NCBI GenBank assembly: GCA_003971905.1
Contig: RSEE01000008.1
Coordinates: forward strand, 124,001 to 188,000
DNA length: 64,000 nt
Reading direction: 5' to 3'
Source: Moniliella sp. 'wahieum'
Taxonomy: Eukaryota
Part shown: positions 17,747 through 54,591 of the stretch, piece after piece
How the letters are laid out: each line of letters starts with the position of its first letter
Numbering within the stretch: the first letter of the stretch is position 1
The notes under the pieces: model-generated
What the model was told of the DNA's origin: nothing
The model's database searches: none
What the model saw: the letters and a program-made list of their open reading frames with translations, nothing else
Made by a program: the position numbers and the translations under genes

Positions 17747-17939
17747 CCTGGCTGGGAGCAGCGCACAGAGTGCAGACGACAGGATGTGGACCGAGGGGTG
17801 GGTGGTGGGTGCTGTGTGCTGGCATAGGCGCAGCCACCCAACCCAACGCCCGTTGCCTGCACCGGTGTTCTGGCGGAATCTTCTCGTCGCCCGCGCTCGG
17901 AAAAATCCACCCAGTTCCGCCCAGGCAGGCGTATTCGGT

Positions 17940-18224
<285 letters not shown>

Positions 18225-32929: not shown

Positions 32930-35745
32930 ACTGACCAAAGCGGAGACCTATGATGGGCTGATGACTAATGATTCTTCTCATCAACTTAAAGTATGTTCTC
33001 GCCAAGGCCTTGGCGAGTGAGAGAAGCATTGCATATACCATTCTCGTGCAAGTTACTATCAAAGTTCGATAGCAATTGTCTGCCCATTGCGCACACATGC
33101 TCAGCTAGTAGGGCCCCGCTTGAGCTACAACACCATTATCTTATAACACACTTCTTCTACGCCGCGAGAACTACCAAAAGGTTTTACCGGAAACCAGAGG
33201 CATGCTGCTAGTGACCGTGGATAGGACACAACGTATTTGCGTTCGGGCTGCTGAGGCTCAACGCTCAGCGAGCGCTCTGTGGTGAGGCACCCTAGTGATC
33301 AAGCGCCTTGACCATAGGCTGGAAAAGCCTCCACTACAGTACAGAACATCAGTAGTGAGAATATTGAGATCGAATTGAGATACCCATGAGGAAACGTGGT
33401 CTGCCTGTTATGTAGGAAACTTGGTCTATCTGTTATGTGACGATGGTGCCATCGCGCAGGCGGTCGTGGAGATCCCGGTAACCGTCGGTATACGCCAGCC
33501 AATGGCATGCCACTGCCATCATACTTAGACGGACATCAAAGTCCATCGTGGGCCAGCTTGACGGAGGGAAAAGAGAATATAGGGCAAAATAGGAACACCT
33601 CTCCAGCGGAGTTCCGAAGCCTGATCGAATCACAGGCACTGTACCTTTTTTCGTCCTCTTGCGCAATAGGTCTTCCATGAGTACATCAGTCTTGTAGTGT
33701 GTTCGATCCCTTGTAACATATATATGTAAGCGCAGTGGAGGCCAAAGGTGCCCTATGTCATGCACACGATAGCTTTTGTCGCGTCTTCGCTACGCGTCAT
33801 GCACCCGGGGGAGGAGAGCGAGCGCTTGATGGAGCGAGAGTTACACTTGAAGGGATCAGATCTCAGATCTCATATTCCACATGCCTCATGTATCCTAGCG
33901 GGGACAACGATTATCGATTATGGTCCGTGCGCCCAGGGGGGGTACTATGTACGAAAAAGGGGCACATTTTTTTCCTATAACCTTTTACACACACAAAGGT
34001 TCAATTTGATGCCCTTTGCGCTCCCCCTAACGTCTAACCCGCTCCACAAACTGACTCTAGCGTTTTGTATACCCCAATGCATCTCTATCGACTACCTCTC
34101 AGATCTCGTTAACGTTTAACGTTTAACGTTTAACGTTTGTAACGTGTATACCAATGTAGGCGTTTAAGGCACCGGCGAGACCAAGAAGAGGCCGTGCGCA
34201 AGTTCCGGTGGGCCAGGAAAACGAGGAGCTCACCGATGGCCATCACAGGGAGACGATTGATCGATGATCGAAATGATTCTTTGTTCGTACCTGCTTCTCC
34301 CCGCAACTCCGCGAGTGCCTAATGTATGTGTGGGGTACGAACAAGTGTGTACACCTCAGCGCTATTAGAAGAGTCCAAATGCGCTGTATGGCCGAGATAG
34401 TCTTCCTTTTGCGTGATGACACTGCGAGGACGTAGAAGTAGAGCAACTTTTTGGGCCTCAAAACCCCGGCGGCCCACCGGCATCGAGTGAACGTATGAGG
34501 CACGTTCGGAGGCACGTACGCAGGCACGTACGGGCAGGCACAAGAGTGTCTCTAGGTTATTGCCTACTTCAAGCCTTCAAGCTTCAAGCTTCAACCTAAC
34601 GCCACAACAGGTGATGCCAATGAAAGGTGATGCATGATGTTCGATGAGGCCGAGGAGACATGATGATATGCGTATGATGTGCACGTGCTCACATGCTGAG
34701 CGCTGGCGGAGCCCGCGGGGGCTGAGCACAACGCCAAGACCAGCAAGGACCCTCAGAAGGTAGCCTAGCCCCTAGCCCTACGTGCCAGCCACACCTTTCT
34801 GCCATTTTTTTCCGGTCCGCCAGTCACGTCGATCATTGATCCTCCCGATGTTCGAACGAACCACGCGCGAGCGAACAGCAATAATCGATTAATGACGAAA
34901 ATGACGCGTGACGCGTGACGGGGCAAGACGTGATGATGAGCAAGTCGTAGGATCTCAGGCTTCTCGCACTTCAGATGAAGCTTCAGAGCTTCAGAGCTTC
35001 AGCCTCAGCGCTCAGACTGTGAGCACTCAGCCTGTCGTGATGTTGTCGTTTGCTGGAAGAATCAACTGGATTTCCCAGCAGAGGTAAGAAAAGCAGGGGC
35101 TTTCCGTCACGCGCGTCACGCGTCACATGTCACACGCAATGGCGTCAGTTGATTGAAGCCCTGGAAAGCGCCAAGCAAGGCTAATCCGAATGGACCTGCT
35201 ACGGTGTATACGTACCCAGTCCAGAGGCTGAGGCACGCAGGCGGGCGACTGAGGCCTCGGACTGCGAGGCACGAGCAGGCTCCCCACGGAAACAAGGCAA
35301 TATTGACCCGACTAGGGCCACAGCGCCCCACCGGCCTGGCACGCCCGAGCCAAAAAGCCTGCCCAAGCGCAGCATCACGGCTACTACATGCTGTGGTACC
35401 CACGCGGGGTCCAACAGGGCCCACCCAACGCCTGGCGCCGCACCCCTCGCGTGTTCTCCGCGCTCCCATGGCTGCAGGGGCCAAGGTGTGCGGAGTCCCG
35501 TCAACGCGTCACCGCACAGGAGCCTCTTGAAGCTTGACGGGCGGGGGGCGAGTAGAAGACGTGCGCACGGTACCTGTGGGATTTCGTTAATCAACACTAG
35601 TCACTAGTCACTCCACACTGACTTTGGCAGTATAATCAGAAGGGATGTGTGGTATATATATGGGCCATCTCCAACTTGCTACCCCTTTACCCACCACCCC
35701 TCACCCCCACACCCCACTGCCCTACCCCTTCCGCACTCCCCCAAC

Positions 35746-36542
35746 ATGCGCTTTGCCTTCCCTCTTTGCCCTTGTTGGCGCGTTCTTCTCTCTGCCCGTC
35801 ATGGCCATGCCCGCCATGGCGCCGCGGGCAAACCAGATCGAGATCGGGTACAAATTTGGTCCCCCTTCCCCTTGAGCTGCGCACTTTTACGGGCACTCAT
35901 GTGCGCAACTACTACTCCCGTAACGCCTCCACTGATCCCGACGCGCGGGACTCGGCTGGACGGCGTATCCTCGACATTTTCCCTGTACGTATACGTGGTC
36001 TCCTTGACGTATCCGTGACGGCTCTTTTCTCCTGGGAAGAGTATTGTTCGCTGACCTTCTGTCTCGCAACCGCGACGCAGGACGGACACAACTCGTCCGC
36101 AGAATACTTTTACTTCATTTCAATTGGTTCTCAGTACAAGGACACTTCGACCAGAGGTGTCCAATATGATTCTGAAGGACAATTTGGGGCCTACTCCAGT
36201 CGGCTTCGAACCCGACGTACGGCATTGGCGCCCGAATGTTGGCAACGGCAACTCCTACGGCCATTTTGCTGCGATCCCCCTGTCGTACGATGATGATGAG
36301 TCGCAGAACCAGCAGCTGTTCAGCGTCGAATTACAACGAGTCAACTATGATAACGGCACGTCAGCCTTTTCCAATGGTCTTTTACCTTTGTAGGCGACCA
36401 AGACAAGACCGGTGGTTACGCCGTGACATTGGCCGACAATGATCACCAAACGGTTCAATGGAACACGCAAGCCCAATCGCCTGGTGGTCATTCCCTTGGG
36501 TTCCCTTGGGATTCTGCTGAACCTGTCCCTGATGGCATTTGA
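35746..36542 (+). CDS. Secreted protein of unknown family, paralogue 1 (apparent frameshifts: pseudogene or assembly error)
   Basis: MRFAFPL..LVGAFFSLPVMAMP signal peptide, same GTACG...GCAG intron as paralogue 2 (about 35985-36080), TATATATA at about 35653. Several indels relative to 41509-42311. Confidence 0.75.
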
Positions 36543-37379
36543 TGATTCACCATCAACACACCGCAATCTGTTTCGTCTCCCTCTCGGGACCCAATTTGTG
36601 CGGAGCGCCATCAATGGCAAGCACACGTTCTGAGCGATCTGATCTATACATTTTTTTTCTGTTTCTTCCTCTCGTTTTTTCCGCCTGTTTTGCAAAACAC
36701 GTAGTAATACGGTGTCATCCATGTCATCAATGTTCAGCGTTCACGTGCGATGCCCCGCATGTTGCCTCTGACGAATGCTTGTGCTCACCCCTCGCAATGC
36801 GAGGGGCACTGAGATGAATGAACGGACGTTGCGTCCTTTTGTGGTAAGGGTTACAGGACTGGTGTGTTCGATTATGTTCTCAACCGTAGATGTGATTCAT
36901 TTCCCGCGGGCAGGCGTTTATCTTGTGTAGTAGTGCATTTGTTATGAGATTGAAACGTGACGCGAAATGGCTGAATCGTTTCGCTTTCAACGCGCCCCGG
37001 TAGCATGACCATCAGCATCCACCCGTGCTTATAAAAAAACGGAAAAAGATCATTGCACTGGTCAAACCCCGTCAAACGACGCCACCTTGATTCATTCGAT
37101 CCAGGGCCGGTTACCGGTGGCATTGGTATGGACGAGAGTTCGTGTGCATTCATCGATCATCAGAGGCAACACCTAGGAACGAAAAGGCGTTCAAAAGGGG
37201 GGGAAGGGAACACAAGAAACAAATGTGGATACGAAAGAAAACGATACAAAGAGAGAAACAGAATAATATGAACGCGTTGCCGTGCTCTCAACGAGTACAT
37301 TTTTTCGCTGGTGAGGTTTCAGCAAAGGGGGGCAAAACAGACCGAGAGTGCTGATGGGTTGATGCGAGGTCAGCGCTTG

Positions 37380-37830
37380 GAACCAACAGGAGTGGATAAA
37401 GCAATGTCCAAAAGTGAACCCGAGAGGCTAAACTGAGGGTTGGAGGATTCAGTGTCCGTTATGATCGTTCAAAGTTAACTCCACATACGCCGAAGTCTTT
37501 TCCTAATTGTTTCTCATCACCTTCACAAGCCATGGAGGAATGGTCCCAGGCTGAAGTGCCCTTGTCATCGTTCAGTCTGGTCAAACACGATCCTCCGGAA
37601 CAATCGTTGGTTATGTGATCCATTATCGTACGGCATGAAAAGCGCAGCAAAAGTGGGTGTTGCGTTGCCACCACCGCCAACGTTAGGTGCTATGTTTCAC
37701 GAATCAGAGTACCTTCTTTCGATTCTAGGATTTTCTCTGGGAAGAAATGCTTTCATGGCTGTCATGTCCACACAAGTGAGCACGGCATAGCCGGGGTAAA
37801 CGTTTAAACTGGCGTCATAATGTTGAGGCA
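37380..37830 (-). pseudogene. Decayed inverted paralogue of the secreted protein family
   Basis: Minus-strand fragments APNVGGGGNATPTFAALFMPYDNGSHNQRLF and RLNDDKGTSAWDHSSMACEGDEKQ align by eye to APNVGNGNSYGHFAAIPLSYDDDESQNQQLF and RFNFDNGTSVWSRWSLGFVGDKDK. Confidence 0.75.
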
Positions 37831-37874
37831 GGCTCTCAGACATCGGTCATGCCCCGCACCCCCGTTACACCACA

Positions 37875-39050
37875 GAGGAAGTGCTATCGGATGATATTCT
37901 TAGTGCCTTCGCAGCCTCCGCTTACTTCTGGTGGAGGGCAGTGCTAGGATTCCCTGCACGGCCCTCAGTGGATCGATGACGCTCGTTTAGAGCGGTCGAA
38001 AGAGTTGTGCTCGCAGGCCGTGCACGCCCTGTGCTCGCACCATCTCCCTTTTCTCTCTCTCCCGCCTCCTTCCCTTCAATTCAGATGTTGCTTGAAGACT
38101 TGTGGCTCACCACCTTGCCTTCACGTTGTCTGAAGGCTGCTTTGCAGCTGATCCATAGGATCGCGAGTGCTCCCAAGTCGCACTCTAGCAGTTTGTCTGC
38201 TTCGCTCCGTCAACATCTATGCCACAGTGCGATGGGGCTTAGATAGGAGGTGGTTACCAAAAGGGGCCAACCAACAGTCAGCATCCTCGATCGGTGGGGA
38301 TCCCTTCCATTCTCGTCCCTTCTGCCTTTCTTGTCCAACTCCTGACCGTTTCCAGCCAATTGATTGACCAATACAGGCAACCTCTCGTCTCCACTTAGCT
38401 GCCTCATCATAATCCAACCTCGTCGTCCAGCTTTCCATCCGCCCAGTCGCGCGAGCCTTCCTTCTGCGCGTCGATTCCCTGACCCACAACATGTCGCATG
38501 GGTTCCTTCACAGCCACGTCGACAGCAGCCCCTACCCAGCCTCAGCCCTGGCAGCGTTTGCCCTCCACTGCACCTACCCGTCCCTAAGCTCGGGAGGCTT
38601 CATACACGTTACCACCCCCACCAGCCGGTGCATACGCAGCCTTGCCACGCGTGCGGCAGCCTCGGCTTCACGCCCAGAGGCTTTTCCTGTGGGCTAATAG
38701 GATCCACCAAATACCCAAACCCGAAACTACCGTGAGTCGTCCTTCACCTAAGGGATTGTACCCCACCAACCTGGGTGAGCCCCCTGGCAGGACCCCCTTG
38801 TGACAGGGTCGTCGTAATTCACGCTTAGTACATGGATCGAGCCCACCACTTCTGGTCCACCGATCATCTTTGCTCAATCCTCTCCCTTGTTCCACCGATT
38901 CCCTTTGTCCCTCCCACTTCTTGTCCCCCCTTGTCCCGCCCCCCCCTTCAATTGCTCTCCACATCCCTCCTTGCTCCAGCGCTCCCTATTGTGCCATGGT
39001 TACTCTTTGCACCACCGCACCCCTTTTAAGGTATGGGACGGACGCGTCGA
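37875..39050. repeat. Dispersed ~1.2 kb non-coding repeat family (other copies about 49582-50645, partial 43240-43720, short matches near 45320 and 58806)
   Basis: Shared blocks such as gaggaagtgcta, ccattctcgtccctt...actcctgac.gtt, and gtgagt...cctaagggattgtacccc...gagcc.cctggc.gg. Possibly LTR- or non-autonomous TE-derived. Confidence 0.7.
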
Positions 39051-39189
39051 CGTTCTGATGCACCCTCCGATATAGAAATAAAATAGAGATTTTCTTTCTT
39101 TCCCCCCTCCTGTCACGCGTCACGGGCGAAGACGGGTGAGGAAAAGATCGGAATTGGAGGTCCCTAATCTATCTACTCTTTTGAATTCA

Positions 39190-40185
39190 TCATTGACAGA
39201 GCTTAAGGCTGGGACAGGGGGAACGCTACGTCTAAACCGAACCGTTCATCTTGCGGGGGTTACTTGGAAGCGCCACTAAGGTCAAGGAACCAGGGGGATC
39301 GCCAGGATATCAGGACCCTCCGGCTCTCGCCATCCGGTCCCGTACCCTAGGAAGCGCGTGTGGACACGGAGGAACGTGGTTGACATCCGAGCGAGGAACC
39401 ATTTCCACTGAGACTTAGTCATAGCTAATCGAAAATGCTGGTAACAAGGTTCCGGATAGATATGTGAGGACTACGTACAAAATTCAAGGTGGGCAAGGCT
39501 GTGCAAGATTGTGCGCAAGAAATTTCGATTAGCCATGCTAGCCAATTCCTTCCAATGCGCAAACAACTTGCCCGCCGTCGTGGTGCCGTAGTATCCTCGC
39601 GTCGGCAAAACCAGGGGGGAAAACGTTTTGAGTGCGTCCCTGGTACTTGGCGTTCTTGTCGCATTCTGCTTGTTCAAGCAGCCGAAGCAGTTCCTTCTCC
39701 CGGCGTTCCAAAGGCGACGCAGTGCTCTCATGCACCACCCGCCGGTACGCGCTCTGCGCCTCCTGCGATCCCGTGTCGCGCAGCGTGTGGTCTACTTCCA
39801 TTCCGGTTCCTCCCAGTGCTCCGGGCCCCATCACGCGGTAATCGGTGCGCTGTGCCTTCCGTCCGCGCCTCGTCCCATCCTCTTCCTCCACCATAGGTTC
39901 GTTGTGGACGCGGGTGTCGGGATGGAGCGTAGGAGCTGGAGACTCCTTTTATAAAAGAGTAGTAAGTCTCAGGGAAATGGTCCTCGTCGGATGTCAACCA
40001 CGTTCATCCGTGTCCACACGCCTTCCTGGGTACGGGACCGGATGGCGAGAGCCGGAGGGTCCTGATATCCTGGCAATCCCCCTGGTTCCTTAATCTTGGT
40101 AGCGCTTCCAAGTAACCCCCTCAAGATGAACGGTTAGGTTTAGACGTAGTGTTCCCCCTGTCCCAGCCTTAAGCTCTGTCAATGA
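39190..40185. repeat. Inverted repeat with ~230-bp arms (39190-39419 and 39961-40185) around a ~540-bp spacer; third arm copy at about 53470-53700
   Basis: tcattgacagagcttaaggctgggacagggggaac...gagacttagt is reverse-complemented as agtaagtctc...gttccccctgtcccagccttaagctctgtcaatga with scattered mismatches. Confidence 0.92.
39471..39945 (-). pseudogene. Fragment of non-LTR retrotransposon restriction-like endonuclease (RLE) domain, CRE/Cnl1-like
   Basis: EPMVEEEDG...QRTDYRV...MEVDHT...AECDKNAKY...F.PLVL.TRGYYG...HWKE: the RTD / E-x-D / K-x-x-KY / F-x-P-L-V pattern of RLE domains. Nearly identical to 53070-53468. Confidence 0.72.
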
Positions 40186-41508
40186 AATGGACGTGATCTA
40201 GGGATTGGGGCGTTTTTTCTTGACATCAGCTGTAGTTTCTGACAAATCATGCCACCTGGCACGTTCCAGTCCAGTCCAGTCCACCCGCCGCTGCACATGG
40301 GTGAAAATTCCGCCCAAGGCGTAGTGGTGAATACCATTCCGCTCTGCAGCGTGGAACGATGGACCGGTAGCTACGGTGGCGACCAAGCACCAAGCACCTA
40401 AGGTGGCGATTGGGGGAACGGTGGCTACGAAGGTGGCGGTGGGGGGAACGGTGGCTACGGTGGCGAAGGCGGACCGGTGGCTAAGGTGGCGACGGTGCAC
40501 CAAGCACCAAGCTGGGGCGCAGCCCCAGCTGACCGGGCCGTAGGCCCGGTGGTCTTCTAGTATTTAATAATGACGAAAATGACGCGTGATGCGTGCTGGG
40601 CAAGACGTGACGCGGGATGATGCATCGATGATGTCGATGAGCAAAAGTCGTAGGATCTCAGGCTTCTCACACTTCAGATGAAGCTTCAGAGCTTCAGAGA
40701 GCTTCAGCCTTCAGCCTCAGCGCGCTCAGTGGCTCAGCTGAGCCTCAGCGCTCAGCCTGTCGTGCTGTTGTCGTTTGCTGGAGGAATCAACTGGATTTCC
40801 CAGGAGGTACGAAAAGAAGGGGGCATTCCGTCACGCGTCACATGCAATGGCGTCAGTTGATTGAAGCCCTGGTAAGCGCCAAGGAAGGCAAATGAGTGTT
40901 AAAGCTTAAGGAGATCCCAATGGACCTACTACGGTGTATACGTACCCAGTCCAGAGGTTGAGGCGCGCAGGCGGGCTACTGAGTACAGACCGGACTGAGT
41001 ACTGACCGGCCGTACTGACCTCGGACGGAGAGGCGCGAGCAGGATCCCACACGGAAACAAGGCAATATTGACCCGACTGGAACCACAGCGCCCCACCGGC
41101 CTACACACCCGAGCCATTAAAAAACCTGCCGAAGCGCAGCGCCACGGCTACTACATGCTGGGTACCCACGCGGGGTCCAACAGGGCCCACCCAGCGGCTG
41201 GCGCCGCACCACTCCACTGTTCTCCGCGCTCCCATGGCTGCAGGGGCCAAGGTGTGCCGAGTCCCGTCAACGCGTCACCGCACCAGGAGCATCTTGCCGG
41301 GCGGGGGGCGAGTAGAAGACGTGTGCACGGTCCCTGCGGGATTTCATTAATCACTAGTCACTAGCTAGTCACTCCACACTGACTTTTGCAGTATATTAAG
41401 GGGCATGTGGTGGTATATATTAGGCCGTCTCCAACTTCATATCCCTTCACCCTCCACCCCTCAACCCCACACCGTCGCTGCCACTATCCCTTGCACACTC
41501 CTATCAGC

Positions 41509-42311
41509 ATGCGTTTTGCCTTCCCTCTTGCTGCCCTCGTTGGCGCATTTTTTTCTCTGCCCGTCATGGCCATGCCCTCCCTGGCGCCGCGGGCAAACCA
41601 GATCGAGATTGGGTACAAACTTGGTCCCCTTCCCCTTGAGCTGCGCACTTTTACGGGCTCTCACGTGCACAACTACTACTCTCGCAACACATCCACTGAT
41701 CCCGACGCGCGGGACTCGGCTGGACGGCGTATCCTCGACGTTTTCCCTGTACGTATATACGTGTTCTCCTTGACATATGCGTGACGGCTCTTTTCTCCTG
41801 GGAAGAGTATTGTTCGCTGACCTTCTGTCTCGCAACCGCGACGCAGGACGGACACAACTCGTCCGCAGAATACTTTTACTTCATTTCAATTGGTTCTCAG
41901 TACAAGGACACTTCGACCAGAGGTGTCCAATATGATTCTCAAGGACAATTTTGGGGCCTACTTCAGTCGGCTTCGAACCCGACGTACGGCATTGGCGCGC
42001 CAAATGTTGGCAACGGCAACTCCTACGGCCATTTTGCTGCTATTCCCCTGTCGTACGATGACGATGAGTCGCAAAACCAGCAGCTGTTCAGCGTCGAATT
42101 AGGCAGATTCAACTTTGATAACGGCACGTCAGTATGGAGCCGATGGTCCCTTGGCTTTGTAGGCGACAAAGACAAGAACGATGGTTACGCCGTGACTTTG
42201 GCCGACAATGATCACCAAACGGTTCAATGGAACACGCAAGCCCAATCGCCTGGTGGTCATTCCCTTGGGTTCCCTTGGGAGTCTGCTGTTCCCGTCCCTG
42301 CTGGCATTTGA
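41509..42311 (+). CDS. Intact 234-aa secreted, cysteine-free protein of unknown family (candidate effector), paralogue 2
   Basis: Exon 1 41509-41748 (80 codons), phase-0 intron 41749-41846 (GTACGT...GCTGAC...GCAG), exon 2 41847-42311. Signal peptide MRFAFPLAALVGAFFSLPVMA, N-glycosylation sequons NTS/NSS/NGT, TATA-like motif at about 41414. Confidence 0.85.
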
Positions 42312-42740
42312 TGATTCACCATAAACACACCGCAATCTGTTTCGTCCCTTTCTCGTGACCCAATTTGTGCGAAGCGCCATCAATTGCAAGCGGACGTTCT
42401 GATCGATCTGATCTCCTTTTTTCTTTTTTTTTCCCTGTTTTTTCCTCTCGTCTTTTTTCGCCTATTTTGCAAAACACGTAGTAACACGGCGCCATCAATG
42501 TTCACATGTGACGCCCCGCATGTTGCCTCTGACGAATGCTTGTGCTCGCCCCTCGCAATGCAAGGGGCACTGAGACGAATGAACGAACGTTGCGTCTTTT
42601 GCGGAAAGGTTACTACTCCCTAGACTGTGTTCGAGGATGTTTTCAACCGTAGATGCATTCATTTCCCGGGCAGGCGCTTATCTTGTAGTGCATTTGTTAT
42701 GATATTGACGCCTGACGCGGAAGGGCTGAATCGTTTCCCT

Positions 42741-44331
42741 TGTTCCTATACTGTAGTGTTGGCATGCACCGCAAAGGGCCTGAAGGGACAGCGGTACTAT
42801 GGAAGATAGACTACGTACAGGCGAAATCCGTTGAGACATCAAGCTTCAAGGTTCCCTGGCGATGCCACAATTGCTATATAGTGTCACGGGCTGCGGCGGA
42901 CACGATATGGTCCGACCCAAGCTAAGGCCCGCCTGCTCCTCACATTCCCACAGTAGAGCGTGCTCCGCAGGCCAACCGAGTGTGATGATGGTTGGCTGAA
43001 TTAAGTATCGTGGCCGAAGGGCCATGCATCCGCGCGGCAATAGCCCCCCGCCCAAGTTCAAGTCGGCCGGCCTAAAAGTAAGGCCACCGAGCTTCCAGTG
43101 TCGTGGCTACATCTGTCGCCCCATCCCCGTTTCCTTTTCGTTTCTTGGTCGCGCCTGAGGCGACCAACCCCGCTTTTGACATGTCTTCATTTCTACCCCC
43201 CCTCTTGGATCCATTTCCCTTTTAATCTTGCCTGTACCCCTGGTTGATGGGGATCCTTTCCCCCACCCTCCATTCTCGTCCTTTCCCGCCTATCAGTGTC
43301 CGACTCCTGCCGGTTTTCCAGCCAATTGATCCAGTACAGGCAGCTTCCTCTCTTGTTAGCGTCCGACTTCTCCTCCGACCTCGTCCTCCAGCAATCCGTC
43401 AGTCCAGTCGCGCGAACCCTGCTTCGGTCGCGGCGATTTCCAGCGTCGATTCCGTCTCAGTTGAGCCAGTGTTTGTCCCCCTCTGCCTCCTCCCGTCCCT
43501 AAGTCCCGGAGGCTTCAGACACGTTACTATACGGCCCACGGTGCAGACGCAGCCTTGCCACACGTGCAGCCGCCCCACCAAAGGCCTCTCCTCGTCCCTA
43601 GCCCCGCTCGGATTCACCAATCAGCCCAAGCCCGAAACTATCTGAGACGTCCTTCCGTCTTCCGTCTCCTAAGGGATTTGTACCCCAAGAACGGTGAGCC
43701 CCCTGGCGGGACCCGTCCGTGACATATAGCAGCTGGCAAAAGGAAGAAGGCATGCTGGGAGCTGTCATGAGCGATTCGACGAAGGGTGAGACAAGAGGGC
43801 CAACAGAATGCCGAGTGTCTCCATTCGACAGCTCTCATCGTCTGTGCCCACCGCAACGCCACGGATGGCCTCATATAGCCATGGCACCAGGCCACGGTAA
43901 AGGTGCTTTGGCCCTCTAATTTTAACCTCGCCGGCAACCGACAACTGATGGAGGAATCGAAACCTCTTCGTACTATCTCACTCCGGCTCAAGCACAAGCA
44001 TAAGTGAAGTAACAGAACAAGAACAAAGAGCGAGACACTCGAGACAGGTATATTTGAATGAATGGCAACATGATCTTCAGCAAAACTATATATATACACG
44101 GCATGCTGTGGGCGCCATGTAAGATTGCAAAGACCGGCTCCCTCTCTTTGATAAAGAAAGCACTTGGGCGGACAATGGGACGACTTCCATTCAATGCCAG
44201 GAATGCGGTGGGTTTTGATGGCCACTTCGGCTATCGGGATGGATGAGATGGCTCAACGATCTCGTCGCGGCTGGGACTGAGGGTGGGCTAGCCACTAGTC
44301 GGCACAGCTGGAGCCAGAAACAGGAGGGACA
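42741..44331. mobile_element. ~1.6 kb insertion specific to duplication copy 2, with TGT...ACA ends (solo-LTR-like or non-autonomous element)
   Basis: Copy 1 reads ...gctgaatcgtttcgctttcaacgcgccccggtagcatg contiguously at about 36970-37008, while copy 2 is split here. Ends tgttcct / agggaca are imperfect inverted termini. No clear TSD. Confidence 0.55.
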
Positions 44332-44699
44332 ATGCGCCCCGGTAGCATGCCAATCAGCATCCACCCGTACTGATAAAAAACAGAAAAATATCATTGCAGT
44401 CAAACCCTGTCAAACAACGGGACATTGATTCATTTGATCCAGGCAGGTCGCATCGGTATGGGTGAGAGTTCGCGTGCATTAATCAGAAGCAACATTTGGG
44501 ACATCACATGCCATCACGACAAGGCGTTCAAAAGGGGGGGAAAGGGAAAACAAGAAACAAAGATACAAGAGAAAAGGAATCAAAGAGAAACAGATCATCA
44601 ACGCATGCTCTCTCAACGAGTATAATTTTTCGCTGGTGGGGTTCAGCAAAAGGGGGTAAAACGGAGAGTGCTGAAGGGTTGATGCGAGGTCAGCGCTCG

Positions 44700-45140
44700 G
44701 AACCAAGGATGGATACAGCAGAGTCCCAAGTGAACCCTAGAGGCTATGACGATGAGGATTGGAGGGCACAGTGCCAGCTTGATGATCGTTTAATGCTCGC
44801 CACATACCCCAAAGTCTTTTGCTTGTTTCATCACCTCTAACCCAAAGACCAATGGTCCCAGACTGAAGTGCCCTTGTAATAGATCAATCCGGTCAAACAC
44901 GATCCGGAACAGTTGTTGGTTACGTAAATCTTATCATCGTACGGGATAAAGATCGCAGCAAAAAGTAGGCGTTTGCATTGGGGCTACCGCCAACATTAGG
45001 TGCCCCAAATACGTTTGACGAGTAAGCCTACATCCTTTCGATTCTAGGCTATTCTCCGCCAAGAAATGCTTTCATGGCTGTCTTGTCCCCACAAGTGAGA
45101 GTGATATAGCAGGGGTAACTGGTGTCGTAATGTTGAGGGA
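44700..45140 (-). pseudogene. Second decayed inverted paralogue of the secreted protein family
   Basis: Minus-strand fragments FGAPNVGGS, FAAIFIPYDDK, NQQLFRI, KGTSVWDHWSLG, NDHQ, GFTWDSAVSI match paralogue 2 (GAPNVG, FAAIPLSYDDD, NQQLF, GTSVWSRWSLG, NDHQ, GFPWESAVPV). Confidence 0.8.
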
Positions 45141-45208
45141 AGCACTCATCCCATATGCATATCATTACGCCCCGAATCCCCCCGGATATACACCAACTTC
45201 TTTCTTTC

Positions 45209-48200
45209 TGTTGTGTGGATGAATTGCGTGCTACACTGGTGACATGGGACCATCAGTGGCCCTGCAGCACCCCTGACATTCCTAGCCGCACTAATCAGCT
45301 CAAGAAGGCATGAATACCGTGTGAGTCGACCTTTGGATCTCCAAGGGGTTGTACCCTTAACCCACCCCCTGCCCTCTCCCCCGTCCTTTGCAGTGGGTGC
45401 CTCAGTCTGCCATACTATCGCTCCTTTTTGATCTATCACAAAAGACTGGTCGGTTCCGAGTTCGAAGGAATGAAAACGGATTGACGTGACTCAGGCTCCG
45501 CGCGGTCCTAGGCCGGATGTCAACAGTCAGCCTACGAGTGATGATAAATCTCCAGTTCTTTATCTTTCCCCATTCTCCATTGATCAACTACGTAGTTCCC
45601 CTTTCATATTCCGGCCCATATACAGTTGTCTGTGGCGACAATCCGTTAGCGTCTCTTCATTTTTGTTCATTCATACAATAGAGGCAATCCCCCTCATCCA
45701 ACAATTGCTTGCTCCGTGCCCCACGTGAATTTGTCGCCCAGCTATCCAGTTAAAACCCGACGTGTCAGCCACGCAGTGTCCGGAATAGGGTTTCTATCTC
45801 CATGGCCTTACCTGGATTACCAGCATCCGTTTTAGTCAAGCTTCAGACGCTGGCCCAGTTAGAGTAGCGTTACGTTAATTTTCGCCTAAAATTGGCAGCC
45901 CCTGATTTACGTTTGTCAATCCATTTTCCTCCTTTCATCATTCTGTGTTAGCACTAATCTTTGATGGGTGAATGGCAAACGGTTCGTAATCCAATGCGAA
46001 GTTTATTACTCGAATCTAGTACGATTAAAATGCTCGATTGAGGGGTATCGCACTCTTCCTTTTCACCCACATGCCGGCGCAAATGGATTCTGATTACTGT
46101 TGGCCATGGTGATGACTGGCAGTTACGCCATTGAGATCTCGCCTATCTATTCACTTGGGCCTCGGCCAGGGACCTACCACCCAGTATTTTGCGCAGAAAT
46201 TGCTGTTAGGCCGTCCTATTTCCACGGCACCACATAATACACAGCAACCCCGACTGTGGGTTACCATAATCTTCGGTAACCTTTTCCATATTTTGCGAAT
46301 GAGCCCCATGTGTCCCTGTTTAATCAACTTTCGCAATTGGGGTAATCAGAATGGGATCAGAGCTTCAACAGATACGACAGAAGCACATAAAGATCATGAT
46401 ACTTCGCGATCACGACCATATGCTTGATACCTTTCCCATGAAAAACCCAAATAGCGTGTTTGTCTTTATGTTTACGCAACTCTGACCCGCTTTCTGAAGG
46501 AAATGACAGGTGCGATAGACGTGCTCGCGACATGGGTTGGTTATATGCATTGAAGAACCTGAATGGAGGTGAACCTCGTTTTCCGGGATTGTCTGTAAGG
46601 AGGGGATGTTTCGCACCGGACAAAGAACCAGGGAATTGCAATGCGTCTGTGGACCGCCGAGTTTAGGAGTTTGCTTTGACTTTTCAATGGGTTCTGAACC
46701 AGGCAAAGTAGCGTTGAAGACAAGAACCTTCTCTTCCTTTTGCTGATTCCTTCTGCTGACGATGGAACGGGTTTATAGGCCACTGAAACAAAGTAATTGA
46801 CAAAGAAATTCCGAAGTCAGAAACGGCTCAGTGGTGTATCCGTATCTATTCGTCTGTAGGCAGGCTACATGCCGTTGGCAGGGGACCAAGGTGACACTGT
46901 ATCCTAACGCAATACCGATTTCACTGCTCCCTAATCTGTTTGGCGAACAAGACCCACAAGACCTTGGATGACAATGCTTCCCCAAGATTCATGAATGATA
47001 TCAACATGGCTCACACCTCGAAACTGTTTCTGACGGTAACGTCAAAGGACCCGATCTAGCCCGATTGTTTGTGTCCATTCGTAACAAAGCGTACGCTACG
47101 CAACAACATATCCACAAGTTTAACGTGGCTTCTTCCATTTTCGATAGCCACAGCCAGCTGTCATCGAGCCTTCTTAATTATACCAACGTCAACCGGCCTT
47201 GTTTGTCCTCGTTGTTCCTCTCCTGGTCTGTTTCCTCAGCATTTGCGGTATCATCGGAGTGCCATTGCCCCACCATCCATTGCAGACGTTTCGAAGCCAC
47301 CTTTCTACATTTGTGTTGTCTAGTCCTTATCGAATCTGTCGCTTCGGACGCTTAATCCATGTACTTTTGTCCACCAGCAGATGATTTTGTAACCGCATCC
47401 TTTGCAGGTGCTTCTTTGCCAGTTGAGACTTTCCAAAGTCACGAGAAACTCAACCGACACATTTCCCATTACCACGTCGTCAACATGTGGAATTCGTTCA
47501 GCTCAGCACGCATTGCCATGTCTTCATCGTTCAATGTCATCTGTACAAATTCTCCGGGGCGATACTAAATGGGTTGAGTTCTTCTGGGGCAGGACCTCTG
47601 CTATCATTCTTTGCCCTTGTCAACTTTTGGGCCTTTCATGTTCTGAGCCTTCAGGTGCTTCACTAGTCCTGCTACGCAACCTGCCCCGTGTGCCCACGCC
47701 CGTAATTTAGAAGCGCCGCCTCGTCTCCAGCAGAGTTCAGATCCGCTACCAAGCTCGATAATCCGTGAGAGGGACTCTCCTCCTCTAACGTAATTCACTC
47801 TCGAACCAAGGCTCGGGCTGATGTTAGGGGCCTACACATTCCACAGTCTCTGCTGGAACAAATTGTTTGAGACACGTCGCTACTGCCCTGGGGTGAGCAT
47901 GTAAAGCCTTGCTGCTCAAACCGCCGCCTCTGTTATATGCCGTGCGAGCGCTCACTCTGCTCTCCCAGGCATTGTACCCTTAAGTCTAGGGACTTGCATT
48001 CACGCTTTCGTTGGTGAATGCGGAATGGGATCTGTGGCACTACGGCCCGAATCAGTCAATGAGTGTGAGAAAAAGAGTGTCCGCTTGACGTGTACATTGT
48101 CATGTTTTCCCAAATCGAAACAGGGGGGCATCTGCATTGCAATATCGCATGCGCTTATGCGAGTTGTTGACTGATACCGAACTGGGAGCGTAGGACTGGG

Positions 48201-49570
48201 AGAAGGGAGACTAGGGCGGCTAGCGAAGAGACGGCCAAGAGAAGGCCTAGCGGCCTGTACGAGGTTAAATCATTGGTCAGTGACAGAAGGGGAGACGCGG
48301 ACGGACCGTCGGGGGAAACCACGAACCATTGTTTACTGGCAAGGAATAATAGGGAAACGACGCAATAGAGGAAGAACAAGGAACAGGCGAGGACGGAGGG
48401 GAGGCGGTCATTACCACACGACGGGCAACGGCTAGAAAGGCAAAGTAAAAGGGTACGGGACGATTATCGTCGCAAAGGATACTGACAGTTCGGAGGCACG
48501 ATTGTGCCCAAAGACCAACTTTTTTCCTTTGGCTGCAGGCGAATATTATTGCGCGGAAACGCAAGGTTGGTGTGTTGCGTGGTTGAGGCTGGCAACAGAC
48601 TCTGCGGAGGGATATAAGTAGTAGGTTCCTCCTCCAAAAAGGAGAGATGGCCATACCATCCATCTTTTTCGACCAATCCGGGGTCGGGGCGAGAAAAAGG
48701 TGAAAAGAGCGCGTAGGCTGAGCTGGGACTGCCAGCCCGTCCTCGCCCATGACAGTACTGGTCTTTGCTTTCCTCATCCAGTATGCGGCCCAAGGCACGC
48801 GGCCTGACATTGCGTTTGCTGCTGGTTTTGCGGGGCAGTCTAATGCCAAACCGACCAAGCAGTCATGGGAAGTAATGAACGGTCGCTACCTGGCCGCGGC
48901 CACAACTCTCAAGCTGGTGTACACCCGCCAACCAACCAAGTTGATCCAAGGATGAACGGATTCCGATTTTGCTGAAGAGTTGAATCGGAAGTGTGTCGGA
49001 GGCTACATGTTCAAGTTGGCTGGCGCTGCTGTGTCGTGGGCAAGTCGCAAGCAGACCAAGTTGGCCCTGTCCACTACCGAGGCCGAGCTCAATGCTGCCC
49101 TAGAAGGCTCTCCGTGAGGCAAAGCATCTGCTCAAGATTGCTAAGGACTTTGGGATGAATCAAAAGAGCATGACCCATCCAAGTGGACAATCAACCGCTG
49201 CTCTGGCTTACTTCGCAGCAACTGAGAAGCACGGTCGCAGCAAGCACTACGACGTTGAGCTCACAATGGTACGAGTATTGTCCCACCCAGTCCATGGTGG
49301 CCGACTTCCTCATCAAGGCCGTCCCTGGTCCTGTGTATGTCAATGGTTGCAAGAGTGTTGGTCTCGAGGACCATTCCCACTCTTGAGGAGTGTTGTGTGG
49401 ATGAATTGCGTGCTACACTGGTGACATGCGACCAGTGGCACTACAGCAGTAGTGTTCTTATTTTCTTCTTCTTCTTCCCACCTGCGGATGGGAGCATAGC
49501 AGTCTTGTGGGAGCTATGCAGTGAATGTTCTGACTTTACCACCTCCATCCCCACTGGTTAGCTGCACAAT
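45209..49570 (+). mobile_element. Degenerate Ty1/Copia LTR retrotransposon (LTR remnants at 45209 and 49391, RT/RNase H relic 48750-49386)
   Basis: YAAQGTRPDIAFA, DSDFAEE..RK..GGYMFKLAGAAVSWASRKQTKLALSTTEAE, DNQ, RSKHYDV, YCPTQSMVADFLIK are Copia RT-end/RNase H motifs. A purine run (ttgaggag) precedes TGTTGTGTGGATGAATTGCGTGCTACACTGGTGACATG at 49391, which recurs identically at 45209. Confidence 0.85.
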
Positions 49571-52500
49571 ATTATGTATACGAGGAAGTGCTATCGGATG
49601 ACATTCTTAGTGCCTTCGCAGTCTTCGCTTGCTTCTGTTGGAGGGTAGTGCTGGGGTTCCCCTGCACGGCCCTAGGTAGATCGGTGACGCTCACTTAGCC
49701 GGGCGGAAGAGTTCCGTTCGCAGGGCGCGCACGCCCTGCTCGCTTTTCATCTCCCTTCTCTCTCTCATCAGGGGTCAACCAACAGTCAGCATCCTCCTTT
49801 ATCCCACCTTCCATTCTCGTCCCTTCTCACCTTTCTTGTCCAACTCCTGACGGTTTCCGGCCAACTGAGTGAGTAATACAGGCTACCTCTCGCCCTCCAT
49901 TTAGCTGCCTCATCTTCATCATCCAACCTCATCCTCCAACTTTCCATCCGCCCAGTCGCGCGCACTTTCCTTCAGCGGCGTCGATTCCCCCTACCACACA
50001 GCATATCGCGTGGGTTCCTTTCACAGCTACGTCGACAGCCGCCCCTTCCCAGCTTCAGCTCTGGCAGTGTTTCCCTCCACTGCACCTACCCTCCCTAAGC
50101 CCCGGAGGCTTCAGACACGTTACTACCCCAAGCCGGCGCATACGCAGCCCTGGCACGCGTACAGCCGCCTCGGATTCACGCCACCAATAAGCCCAAACCT
50201 GAAACTACCGTGAGTACTTCACCTAAGGGATTGTACCCCATCAACCTGGGCGAGAGCCTCCTGGCAGGGCCCAGGGTAAGGATCGAGCCCGCCATCCACC
50301 GATCAACCTTGCTCCATCCTCCCCATGTTCCGCCGATCCCCTTCTTGTCCCCCTTGCCCCCACCCCCTCAATTGCTCTCCACCACTCCGCCTTGTGCCAC
50401 GGTTACTCTTTGCACCACCGCCACCCTTTGAGCTAGTCAAAGACGCGTCGGGTGGTCCTCCGTCTTCGAAAATTAGCATTGTGGGGAGTCGGCAGCCTTG
50501 TGGCCATGGCGACGGCAGTGGCGGCACAACTCTCGGCGTGGATTGAAGGAGCACTGTGCGCGAGTGTGGTCCTTGGTGCGGCAATGAGGGCACCGCCAGT
50601 GAGCACGGGTAGGGGCATTTTAAGGGTGGAGGGACGCGTCGACGCGACTCTGTCATATGCCCGATAGTTGGCGCAACCAGCCCCGTCACGTGCAGGTCGG
50701 GGAGCAGTATCCTGTCAGGCAATGGATGGACGAGGTTAGCCTCGAGCAAATTGAATCGCCAAATGTTTTTGCAGAGGGGGCGTACCAGGCGTTCTTTTGG
50801 CCCTTATATCAGCCAAGCATTGAGCGATCAGATTCGGCGCATCGGGGGGGCGAAGGAATTGCACCCTCTTGTTTCCTTGCCATTGAGGTAAGGTTCTGGC
50901 GATATCGCATGCGGCTGGCAGATTTTGTTTGTTGGGGAGATGGTGATGGTGCCCCTGTAGGGAGAGTTCCTCAGCTAGGTGAACAGGTATCTCGGTCCGG
51001 AAGTGGGCTTGAACTGATGAGACCTGGAGTCCGGATGGTCATTGAGGGTGATGCAATCGCACTGGTGGCGGTGGTTGTCTAAGCCAACCAGCAACACCTA
51101 CAGAGGAACAGCAAGCAGCGAGTCGCCTCCAGGGGCTGTGCTTCGGAACAAGGAAAAACAAGAGAGAGAGAAAACAACAGAACTCCCAGGCCTGAGGAGG
51201 AACTGAAGGGACATTGGCCAAAGCACGAGCCACCCGATGGCTCAACATGAACTGTCTGTCCGCTTACCTATTTCTCCCCATACACCATGCCAGGCAGTAT
51301 GCGGGTCTTATTTTGAAGGGCTGTGCGCTCGCTGATCGTCCACCCGGAGCCCGAAGGCTGAGGTTACCGCACGGCTACCAGTGACCGTGACCAGTTAACG
51401 TTTAGCGTACTTTAACATGCTTCGTGCGAGCGACCCTGCCCCGCACGGGCTTCAGCCGCCTCACGTCGCAGGGCAGCACAGCATGCTCTCCAGCACCATG
51501 CTTCTGTTTTTGGGGTGATGCATGATGATCGATGAAACAGCGGCCCCAGGCCTCAATTTGAGGTGGTAAGTCAATTCACGCTCCGCAGATCTCAGCTCGA
51601 TCGACCCCTGGGAATCTGACCCCTGGTGGGGAAGCGACCACACAGCTGCATCACTTTTATGCGAACTGCATGCCCCCGTCCACCACCTTTCCCGCCATCA
51701 TCTTTCTGTTGAGCCAGTACTGCCACTCTACAATGCCTCCCTCCCGCACCGTCACAGGGCGCCCCAGTAACCAGCAACGCCGCTCGCCGCCCGAGGGACA
51801 CACGACGTATCAACCCTGAGCCGGAGCCCGTGGTGGAGACTGCGTTCGAAGGTGACGAACCATCCCCTGAAGGTCCACCTGTGGTGGCACCAGTTGGCTC
51901 AACCGTGATTCCGACGGCGACTGAGAGGGAAAAGAGGAGTACGAACCGAGAGTTACGTTTTAGTCCCTTCTCCCCCCCGGTTCCCGTGTGGGTTCGTGAA
52001 ATGATATGCGGGGTCAATTGAACCAGCACGACGAAGGTGAACAACGATGAATATGCGCTGGATCTTGACGCTGACATCTTGTTCCCCCGCACAATGGGCG
52101 CTGACGAATAGAGCTCCGTTAATCAGGACGAATTTGCTGGCATTCCCCTCTTATCTGACCCTTTCGCCGGAGAATGGGATCCACATTTCAGCGATCCCCT
52201 CGTTACAAGGGCAACATGCATCACTAAGCGAGGGAAGTCTATGCGAGATCAAGACTCTTCGGGTACTCTTTTTGTCAAAACCATGCGAAGCAGGAATCGT
52301 TGGCCAGGGCTTTGCCATGTCCAACCCACGCCAGTATTTCGAACGCTTGCTGGAGCACAAACAGGTCAGGACCATCAGCTCTCGCCGTACACCCCAGGAT
52401 CACTTTGTACTGTACTGACACTTTCTCTTTCCATGAACAGATCGCCACTGACATAAATGGTACAAATGGCTCGCGGTATGGGTTTTGTCTGCATCCCGAG

Positions 52501-52789
52501 AGCAGGATGGGCAACAGTAAGGATTTAAGCTTGGTTTTCCGTCCGCAAGCGGCTTGTTCCCCTCAAGGTCTGGAAGAGTACACTTTTGACCCAGGACAAC
52601 TTCTAGCCCATATCGGTTGTGTGACAAAAAGTTTGTCCAAGTTCTGTTGACGGTGTTCCTGAAGCCGACTTGGTCGACCATGCGTAGTCGCATTTTCGAT
52701 TTGGAGGTACGTTGTTATGCGTACACTGGTTATGACCTTGCTACCCCCTAACCTAACCCATTGCTTAATCTTATTACCAATTATGTTGA

Positions 52790-53470
52790 CCCGGCGGGAC
52801 CGCAAACGGCTACGGCCAACGCATTTACGAAGCAACGCCAGCGCTGCCGGGGAATGTGGGAGCAAAGTCGACAGGAGCTGCTCCAGAAGCTGGACGCGGC
52901 CGACGGTCGCAATGTGGTTGAGCACAGCAACCCGCTGAGCCACAACTGGCTCTCCGCGCCATTCCATCCGTCCCGTACCTCAAGCTCTCTGATCAGCAGG
53001 TCCAGGTTGGTCTCCAGCTCCGAACGCTGTGCCGCACCACGCGCAGCATGAGGCAGTGCGGGAGCCCATTCTCCAGCTCCTACGCTCCATCCCCGACACC
53101 CACATCCGCAACGAACCTATGGTGGAGGACGAGGATGGCAAGAGACAGAGGACGCAGCGCACCGACTACCGCGTGATGGGGCCCGGGGCACTCGGAGGAT
53201 CAGGAATGGAGGTAGACCACACGCTGCGCGACACGGGATCGCTGGAGGCGCAGAGCGCGTTCCGGAGGGTGGTGCATGAGAGCACCGCAACCCCCTCGGA
53301 ACACCGGGAGAAGGAGCTGCTTCGGCTTCTTGAACAAGCAGAATGCGACAAGAACGCCAAGTACCAGGGACGCGCTCAAGAGCCGTTTTTCCCCCTGGTT
53401 TTGACGACGCGAGGATACTACGGCACCAAGACGGCGGGCAAGTTGTTTGCGCATTGGAAGGAGTTGGCTA
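52790..53470 (+). mobile_element. 5'-truncated CRE-like (RLE-type) non-LTR retrotransposon relic
   Basis: PLSHNWLSAP...LKLSDQQVQVGLQLRTL, then HEAVREPI...NEPMV...QRTDYRV...MEVDHT...DKNAKY...FFPLVLTTRGYYG...HWKE, consistent with the C-terminal region of RLE-encoding LINEs. Confidence 0.7.
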
Positions 53471-53734
53471 CTAAGTCTCAGTGGAAATGGTTCCTCGCTC
53501 GGATGTCAACCACGTTCCCGTGTCCACACGCGCTTCCTAGGGTACGGGACCGGATGGCGAGAACCGGAGGGTCCTGATATCCTGGCGATCCCGCTGGTTC
53601 CTTAATCTTGGTAGCGCTTCCAAGTAACCCCCTCAAGATGAACGGTTAGGTTTAGACGTAGCGTTCCCCCTGTCCCAGCCTTAAGCTCTGTCAATGAAAT
53701 GGAGACGTGATCTAGAGATGTCGGTGTTGGAGAC

Positions 53735-53825
53735 GGTGGAACGGTGGTTAAGGTGGCGACGCAGCACAGTTGGGGCGAAGCCCCAGCTGACCGGGCCGTA
53801 GGCCCGGTGGTGGTCCTCCTTGTAG
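53735..53825 (+). mobile_element. Second Helitron-like 3' terminus
   Basis: ggtggttaaggtggcgacg...agttggggcGAAgccccagct g accgggccGTAggcccggt...ttgtag|t, homologous to 40480-40560. The terminal CTAG is degenerate (GTAG). Confidence 0.6.
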
Positions 53826-54591
53826 TATATAGGGGATATTGGCGTGGTGTCAGCATGTGGAATATCTCAGTGTGTGCTCTCGAGGTGGCTGTTGTCCCTA
53901 GTTAGATCCGTGAGGGCAATATTCTTTTAAAGGTACGAAGCTCTGACTTAGCATTGACTTCAGGGTCTGATCCTCTGGCCCCAGGCCCAACGAACCCGAG
54001 GGCTGGCCTACTCTTTTGACCCCGACAAGCCACAAGTCATCACCGCCCCGGAAATCTACACACTGGTTATGGGAAAAGCGGGACCGCTAGTACCTACTAT
54101 GGCATGCATCGTCCCCTCTTTGATAGAAGACACAACATATATGTACTGGGGTGCCATTATCATAATAGGGCGTTTATTCAGCCGCTCAATGAGCGCGTAC
54201 ATTCAAAAGTTAATAACAAAGAAGACGAAATACCGGGTGAGAAACAAAAACAAAATATGCAGGGACAGAGACCAAAAAACAGAAGGTGGCGAGAGAGAGG
54301 CCAACCACAGTATAGGTCTGTCAAAATATGGGTCTTGGCCGAAGTCGGGCACTGCAAGACAGATGAATGCCGGAGCATTTAGCAGAAAAAAAGGGCGGGA
54401 AAGGGGGGAAGAGTGTGGAAGGGGAGGTCACCCCCACGGTGAAGCTTCGGTAGGGTTATTTCACGCCAGCGAAGCCGAATATTAACGCCAATTCGAGGAT
54501 GGGATGGAGGCTGAGAAAGCCGGATTGCGGCAGTGTCAAAACGTCAGGAAAGACAGGTACTCGGGGGGGAAACAAGGGTGTCCAACCAGTC

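Follow-up and report, generated by a model that had tools for sequence, protein, structure and literature searches.

What kind of mobile element lies between the two copies of a tandemly duplicated fungal gene, and did it take part in the duplication? The question is raised by a 64,000-nucleotide stretch of the genome of Moniliella sp. 'wahieum' (contig RSEE01000008.1, positions 124,001 to 188,000 of the forward strand; hereafter, the window), in which a direct duplication, with copies S1 and S2, carries an orphan secreted-protein gene. An earlier note on this DNA described the locus as a Helitron-associated amplification island. The present analysis points to a different element. By sequence homology, the repeat at the joint is one of two dead, 5'-truncated copies of a non-LTR retrotransposon (one lacking long terminal repeats) with a C-terminal CCHC motif and restriction-enzyme-like (REL; PD-(D/E)XK) endonuclease, of the R2/CRE/MoTeR-FoTeR kind. 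The copy at the joint is referred to here as relic R1' and the more distant one as relic R2, which is not to be confused with the R2 retrotransposons. With a probability that we put at roughly 0.55, a twin-primed insertion of this element at R1' set the boundary of the duplication. The geometry of the relics, their homology and the exact junction are read directly from the alignments, and the uncertainty attaches to twin priming and to the causal link. The locus comprises the following features, with strand where one applies.

34890..39052: S1, copy 1 of the duplication (blocks A to D), from self-BLAST with its right end mapped
39053..39189: spacer of 137 bp holding one CCCTAA (39162-39167), with no match in or downstream of S2
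39190..39942, minus: antisense piece of relic R1', the reverse complement of relic R2 53697-53070 (self-BLAST, 95.7% and 89.4%; tblastn)
39420..39538: insertion of about 118 bp resembling a miniature inverted-repeat transposable element (MITE) inside the antisense piece, missing from relic R2 (by eye; gap in self-BLAST)
39538..39894, minus: remnant of the REL-domain open reading frame (ORF) in R1' (tblastn of protein P0001, introduced below, and others)
39943..39959: 17-bp filler at the inversion junction, holding the palindrome CTTTTATAAAAG (by eye; unaligned in self-BLAST)
39960..40566, plus: sense piece of relic R1', equivalent to relic R2 53469-53831 with a longer 3' untranslated region (UTR), ending CTAGTATTTA (self-BLAST; hairpin and repeat analysis)
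40568..50430: S2, the second copy, broken up by 42741-44330 and 45148-49582 (self-BLAST; repeat search)
52745..52758, plus: telomere-like CCCTAACCTAACCC, directly 5' of the truncation of relic R2
52764..53831, plus: relic R2, with linker, REL coding region and 3' UTR, frameshifted, ending TTGTAGTATATA (tblastn; self-BLAST)

The identity of the element is best read from its coding sequence. The repeat has a single ORF, at 53119-53577, with the antisense remnant in R1' as its counterpart. Searched against 1.84 billion representatives, this ORF gave 16 protein matches at an expect value (E) of at most 0.001, the best being P0001, a protein of 279 aa (E 5.7e-61, 76% identity). In the long matches (498-1301 aa) the matched stretch is C-terminal, and four of the 16 carry an RVT_1 domain N-terminal to it. 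The reverse transcriptase (RT) of P0010 matched only five distinct sequences in the PDB, all of R2 retrotransposons (best E 3.3e-09), and a search with P0010 yielded 235 fungal-looking relatives. The names given to these were only 'hypothetical protein' or 'reverse transcriptase', those with named sources coming from Filobasidium, Kwoniella, Wallemia, Aureobasidium and Cladobotryum; the element family is apparently unnamed. The REL motif of MoTeR1, FoTeR, SLACS and CRE is given as C..C..H..C..RH[DNE]..E..[RK]xD..[DE], and also quoted as RH(D/N)..E..(R/K)xD..(D/E) (PMC12857005). It was found in 11 of the 16 matches and in 116 of the 143 relatives fetched, with RHE in place of RHD/N. The ORF of relic R2 itself retains the invariant columns R-x-D, D and K..Y, as RTD, ExD and K..KY, its CCHC part having been lost by deletion and frameshift. 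By tblastn, proteins of the relatives are collinear on 52764-53600 (plus strand) and on 39921-39288 (minus strand), so that relic R2 follows its relatives from the RT-REL linker to the C-terminus, save for the deletion that removes the CCHC knuckle.

These results bear directly on the Helitron identification. The ORF is homologous to the C-terminal endonuclease of RT proteins, and the sequence shared by the two copies follows an RT-REL retroelement protein, and the UTR downstream of it, collinearly over its whole length. Neither a Rep nor a PIF1-like helicase domain was found in any of the 202 window ORFs of at least 110 aa, the only helicase being the host UPF1.

The ends of the relics point the same way. 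A full-length relic R2 was considered and rejected, since a search with E relaxed to 5 detected no RT homology upstream of about 52.7 kb; relic R2 is thus 5'-truncated. Both relics end in a hairpin, a second hairpin and (C/G)TAGTAT(T/A)TA, after which their flanks differ. Their 5' ends, in the two copies compared, lie at different places, at 52764 in relic R2 and, for the sense piece of R1', at the position corresponding to 53469. Copies that agree in their 3' end but not in their 5' end are the hallmark of a non-LTR retrotransposon. The hairpins and the tandem repeat belong to the 3' UTR of this element. In R1' this region contains a tandem repeat with a 26-30-bp unit (40398-40497) and hairpins at 40510-40530 and 40532-40550; in relic R2 the hairpins lie at 53767-53789 and 53790-53808, within a non-coding tail of about 250 bp. 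The two GC hairpins before each end are real (z = -6.3 and -3.9 against shuffles) and stand 7-16 nt before it, as would suit a Helitron as well; they do not discriminate between the two types of element.

The Helitron termini proposed earlier fared unevenly. The second terminus, placed at 53825, does recur as a homologous end: the equivalent of the sense piece occupies 53469-53831, with two hairpins and a TAG at 53823-53825, about 3.4 kb past copy 2. It reads TTGTAG, however, and so ends GTAG rather than CTAG or the wider CTRR. The proposed 5' end at 39168 has no counterpart, as homology between the copies begins at 39190 and the 5' end of relic R2 is a truncation. The window contains the 16-mer at that site (TCTATCTACTC...) a single time, plus one match at three mismatches (10875), where 0.22 would be expected by chance. 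Only with this 5' boundary does copy 1 allow the reading A|TC...CTAG|T.

Beyond the window, metagenome scans with P0001 and with a 24-nt hairpin string gave 12 pattern matches, none of them confirmed, and no matches, respectively. Public run X1 was the only run holding part of the stretch (share 0.09), in contigs of about 200 bp that are too sparse for element ends or an empty site. Its depth is about 24-27 over 39148-39811 and 53092-53755, compared with about 2.5-3.5 for single pieces (40205-40381, 52581-52766), which suggests that the element is multi-copy in a related organism possibly sharing the locus.

The second component of the locus is the duplication. Self-BLAST and a repeat search confirmed the direct segmental duplication that had been described, resolving S1 (34890-39052) against S2 (40568-50430) into four blocks.

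Block A: S1 34890-36986 against S2 40568-42741, 83.7% identity over 2234 columns, substitutions 10.1% (207/2044)
Block B: S1 36988-37838 against S2 44330-45148, 76.2% identity, substitutions 18.0%
Block C: S1 37875-38059 against S2 49582-49766, 83.5% identity, substitutions 16.3%
Block D: S1 38262-39026 against S2 49770-50429, 73.6% identity, substitutions 12.9%

Over all blocks, S1 and S2 differ at 464 of 3673 sites (12.6%), and blocks B to D pooled differ at 257 of 1629 (15.8%). This is ordinary divergence, far too great for an assembly duplicate; because the copies are 10-20% diverged, a collapsed or duplicated assembly, the possibility raised at the outset, is unlikely. Repeat-induced point mutation was ruled out as its source, with transition/transversion ratios of 1.0-2.0 and no CpA/TpG bias (transitions in CpA/TpG context in the four blocks: 11/110, 13/72, 5/20 and 8/49). 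The onset of S2 homology is sharp, at 40568, and lies 7 bp past the CTAG at 40557-40560, as had been stated. Likewise upheld is the claim that the element nearly fills the gap between the copies, of which 39190-40566 takes up 1377 of 1515 bp.

How R1' came to be built as it is may be seen from the order of its pieces, which runs antisense 53697->53070, 17-bp filler, sense 53469->53831, with the 3' end kept. The antisense and sense pieces overlap by 229 bp, and this overlap produces the apparent 'inverted arms'. A simple fold-back origin was ruled out, as the piece order is not mirror-symmetric. This order is what twin priming during target-primed reverse transcription yields, a process reportedly described for LINE-1 by Ostertag and Kazazian in 2001. 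As in LINE-1, an antisense 5' piece is joined to a sense 3' piece with the 3' end intact, and a duplication or deletion of 1-10 kb may stand at the joint. Here, unlike LINE-1, the endonuclease is of the REL rather than the APE type, there is no poly(A), the overlap amounts to 229 bp, and the event is an old, fixed one in a fungus rather than a somatic one.

Two smaller features of R1' deserve mention. The filler contains CTTTTATAAAAG, a perfect 12-nt palindrome, and the region around it (39943-39962) holds a 10-nt AAAAGAGTAG, which matches the left flank's CTACTCTTTT (39172-39181) in reverse complement. This match may reflect a templated insertion during end joining, or chance. The insertion of about 118 bp in the antisense piece has imperfect inverted ends of about 15 nt (CAT(A/G)GCTAATCGAAA...), and resembles a small MITE that came in once the relic existed.

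The position of R1' ties it to the duplication. The last base of the common 3' end, ...TAGTAT(T/A)TA, is 40566, and the first of S2 is 40568, so that the 3' junction, which is the precise one in target-primed reverse transcription, falls within one or two bases of the duplication boundary. By our own estimate, a chance coincidence of this precision within the surrounding island would arise roughly once in a thousand, and the 3' flanks of the two relics have no evident target motif in common beyond TA. From these two points we infer a causal link: insertion and duplication boundary are probably connected mechanistically. The idea that the element seeded the tandem duplication thus survives in part, in that a mobile-element fragment stands exactly at the junction and is probably linked to it, but the element is not a Helitron.

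Two routes could have produced the link. In the first, the 4.2-kb repeat would be a kilobase-scale target-site duplication (TSD) made by break-induced copying at the insertion. In the second, the tandem duplication would be older and once larger, and a deletion that came with the insertion would have removed its original joint. Both outcomes have a precedent in L1 in human cells, where tandem duplications of 1-10 kb that carry L1 at their junction and are 'regarded as large TSDs' arise via break-induced replication, and where 1-10 kb deletions are the commonest outcome (bioRxiv 10.1101/2024.12.14.628481). The divergence of the R1' arms, at 17 of 223 sites (7.6%, 95% confidence interval 4.5-11.9%), does not differ clearly from that of block A (10.1%; p = 0.29). 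This timing is compatible with a single event and does not choose between a large TSD and an insertion-linked deletion. The S1/S2 repeat flanks R1' as a TSD would, with 137 bp on the left unmatched. The stronger claim, that the 4.2-kb tandem duplication is itself the TSD of a twin-primed REL-type insertion that doubled an orphan secreted-protein gene, is nevertheless quite doubtful. If true, it would provide a fixed, evolutionary fungal case of retrotransposition-coupled tandem gene duplication at the kilobase scale, so far mainly a somatic outcome of L1 in human cells.

Several observations weigh against a twin-primed insertion that set the boundary. The arms of R1' are less diverged than blocks B to D (7.6% against 15.8%, p = 0.0008), so that a single event would require gene conversion between the arms or uneven rates. 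No TSD of ordinary size flanking R1' was seen by eye, and the 137 bp at 39053-39189 match nothing in or after S2, which a pure large-TSD model does not predict. The 229-bp overlap is large for twin priming when set beside cases in L1, and twin priming does not predict the 10-nt inverted copy of the left flank in the filler. Other points concern the element itself. No RT domain was found in the window. The structure model of the REL domain has a mean predicted local distance difference test (pLDDT) score of 75.1 and gave no Foldseek match at E of at most 0.001; aligned by VIA with the C-terminal domain of five R2 entries, it scored Z 3.3-4.1, which is weak and equal to the scores of unrelated chains. 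A full-length copy with the shared 3' UTR was not obtained, and the hairpin end as the terminus of the element rests on two copies.

The R2 retrotransposons offer a partial parallel. Their protein recognises a structured 3' UTR, a feature that the hairpins of the relics would resemble. The relatives of the element also have a C-terminal endonuclease after CCHC, and R2 entries (PDB 8gh6, 8ibw, 9nl2, 9nl3, 9dou) are the sole PDB matches of their RT. The differences from R2 are that the target here is not rDNA, sequence identity is low and the fold match is as weak as noted above.

The main rival to a boundary set by insertion is that the relics mark former chromosome ends. Under this explanation the family would be telomeric or near-telomeric, and breaks in or beside terminal copies would have been healed by telomerase, or joined to internal DNA by non-homologous end joining or break-induced replication, so that the relics became internal and the adjoining 4.2 kb was duplicated; the inverted piece of R1' would then be a product of repair. 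We consider this route possible but unlikely. In its favour, CCCTAACCTAACCC lies 5 bp before the truncation of relic R2, is the only such locus in the window, and has the strand and side expected if the 5' end of the element faces the chromosome tip, the orientation rule described for MoTeR elements (PMC7367193). A single CCCTAA stands 22 bp to the left of R1', and the REL motif is common to MoTeR1, FoTeR, SLACS and CRE. However, telomere repeats are found at the 3' end of neither of the two relics, whose 3' flanks read TATTTAATAATG and TATATAGGGG; the MoTeR relics are described as all having at least a partial 3' telomere repeat (PMC7367193), and FoTeRs carry 3-7 telomere units at the 3' end (PMC12857005). 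Furthermore, 17 of 200 shuffled windows also contained a telomere-like 14-mer, and lone hexamers are frequent, with 17 in the window. In P0001, the closest relative, the spacing of the motif (C-X1-C, LHE, RTD) departs from the MoTeR1 formula.

Among described fungal situations, MoTeR relics in Pyricularia oryzae nevertheless come closest (Rahnama et al., 2020, PMC7367193; Rahnama et al., 2021, PMC8381367), and together with the FoTeRs (PMC12857005) they belong to the same C-terminal CCHC+REL type of fungal non-LTR element. The resemblances extend to short, 5'-truncated internal relics without TSDs (PMC8381367), which neither relic here has in ordinary form. They also extend to tandem relics among other DNA, to a duplication that begins less than 20 nt from a relic boundary, and to a telomere-like tract at one 5' truncation, where some MoTeR relics have telomere tracts. 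Of 19 internal MoTeR relics, 12 stand at duplication boundaries and three are arrayed in tandem with other DNA between them (PMC7367193), all of which would suit the telomeric route. The present locus is unlike MoTeR and FoTeR in having no 3' telomere repeat, a different motif spacing, and one inverted 5' piece. It also differs in the side of the relic concerned, with the duplication beginning at the 3' boundary, where the MoTeR cases have it at the 5' boundary (PMC7367193).

Less probable still is that insertion and duplication were unrelated, with a tandem duplication formed by unequal exchange or replication slippage and a retroelement landing later, by chance, at its junction. The divergence values speak for this account: the arms of R1' (7.6%) and R1' against relic R2 (64/872, 7.3%) both fall below S1 against S2 (12.6%; p = 0.027 and 5.5e-06), which suggests an insertion younger than the duplication. 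The locus also sits in a gene-poor island of 21 kb, where insertions are tolerated. Against it stands the exactness of the junction, a coincidence estimated at roughly one in a thousand or less within the island, and site preference offers no rescue, as the 3' flanks lack a common target motif beyond TA.

As for the Helitron, in which a non-autonomous element (39168-40560) would have bypassed its 3' terminator and captured DNA up to 53825, or seeded the duplication by rolling-circle transposition, it can be set aside as scarcely credible: the CTAG at one end, the subterminal hairpins and the missing ordinary TSD do match features reportedly set out by Kapitonov and Jurka in 2001, but the window has no RepHel, the copies share no 5' TC end, the interior is retroelement ORF and UTR, and terminator bypass and capture cannot explain the upstream copy, as S1 lacks an element 5' of it.

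The composite rolling-circle unit once drawn from 39168 to 53825 likewise lacks support, its two termini being the 3' ends of separate 5'-truncated copies in the same orientation. A subterminal hairpin with CTAG is thus insufficient to call a Helitron, and with its structured 3' UTR a non-LTR element of the REL type can pass for a Helitron at that end. More broadly, the locus is a clean, datable fungal case of a retroelement relic standing base-exact at a tandem-duplication joint. The kind of event is known, from MoTeR relics in the blast fungus and from L1 in human cells, and it involves here an apparently unnamed element family. Given the whole genome and those of relatives, the locus could reveal which repair route, whether a large TSD, an insertion-linked deletion or telomere-end repair, ties such elements to gene duplication.

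The cargo of the duplication is a secreted-protein gene, orphan and effector-like, of which one copy is alive and the other decayed.

41509..42311, plus: intact secreted-protein gene in S2 (exon 1 41509-41748, intron 41749-41846, exon 2 41847-42311)
35746..36540, plus: pseudogene twin in S1, with 95% column identity to the S2 gene (end coordinate computed from the alignment)

The S2 gene has a canonical intron of 98 nt (GTACGT...CTGAC...CAG) and encodes a product of 234 aa with no cysteines and, read by eye, a signal-like N-terminal peptide. Its S1 twin keeps the intron and carries five frameshifting indels, namely a 1-bp insertion and four gaps, of which one is 2 bp long and three are 1 bp. 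There is thus one live gene and one pseudogene, not an amplified family. Of the transposable element (TE)-driven birth-and-death module proposed earlier, 'TE-associated' remains a fair wording, but 'amplification' is overstated. An RNA-mediated origin of the gene copy, by retro-copy or transduction, was ruled out, as the intron is present in both copies and no element lies upstream of S1. Searches of limited sensitivity found no homologue of the protein among 28 near-length and 210 longer candidates, no Atlas neighbour, and no Pfam family at E of at most 10; by these sensitivity-limited searches it is an orphan. A single-sequence structure model was unusable (pLDDT 35.9). Within the gene, 35817-36267 and 41580-42030 are 2-6% divergent with an identical intron, amid neighbouring DNA that is 10-20% divergent, a pattern suggestive of recent gene conversion between the frameshifted pseudogene and its live counterpart.

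The locus lies in otherwise ordinary fungal DNA. The window is fungal and its genes are intron-bearing and include those for SKN1/KRE6, a lipoyl ligase, an aspartyl protease, an ABC transporter, a cation-efflux protein and UPF1. A gene for an FAD-binding (BBE-like) enzyme ends near 33.0 kb and forms the left edge of the island, and a MARVEL gene at 54.6-55.4 kb (minus strand) forms the right edge. Between 33.1 and 54.5 kb, ORFs of at least 75 aa gave no Pfam family match, which places the duplication locus in the gene-poor island of 21 kb. Over 33-56 kb, Rfam gave two sub-threshold matches only, and no tRNAs were found.

Within the duplication, one further block was recorded.

43254..43714: third, older partial copy of block D, diverged from the other two by 23% and 31% (substitutions)

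Block D is C/T-rich and occurs three times in the window (38262-39026, 43254-43714 and 49770-50429). The depth of 42951-43640 in run X1 is 3-4x single-copy, and block D may be part of a dispersed repeat, beyond the duplication alone. Between blocks B and C, S2 holds about 4.4 kb of extra DNA (45149-49581), of low depth in run X1, with direct repeats of 44-61 bp near both ends (45209-45269 and 49391-49448, 90-98% identical); this was either gained by S2 or lost from S1. Pfam domains and terminal inverted repeats were absent from 42741-44330, 45148-49582 and 50430-52745. In each copy, block A begins with a GACGCGTGACGCG-like motif containing ACGCGT and has another close to its end (34890-34922, 36939-36971, 40568-40600 and 42694-42726), and one more lies just before R1' (39109-39124); such motifs could be regulatory boxes.

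Outside the island, long overlapping ORFs without Pfam match at 16.9-18.3 kb enclose a tandem array (17930-18269) with a period of about 105-110 bp, whose units are 88-93% identical.

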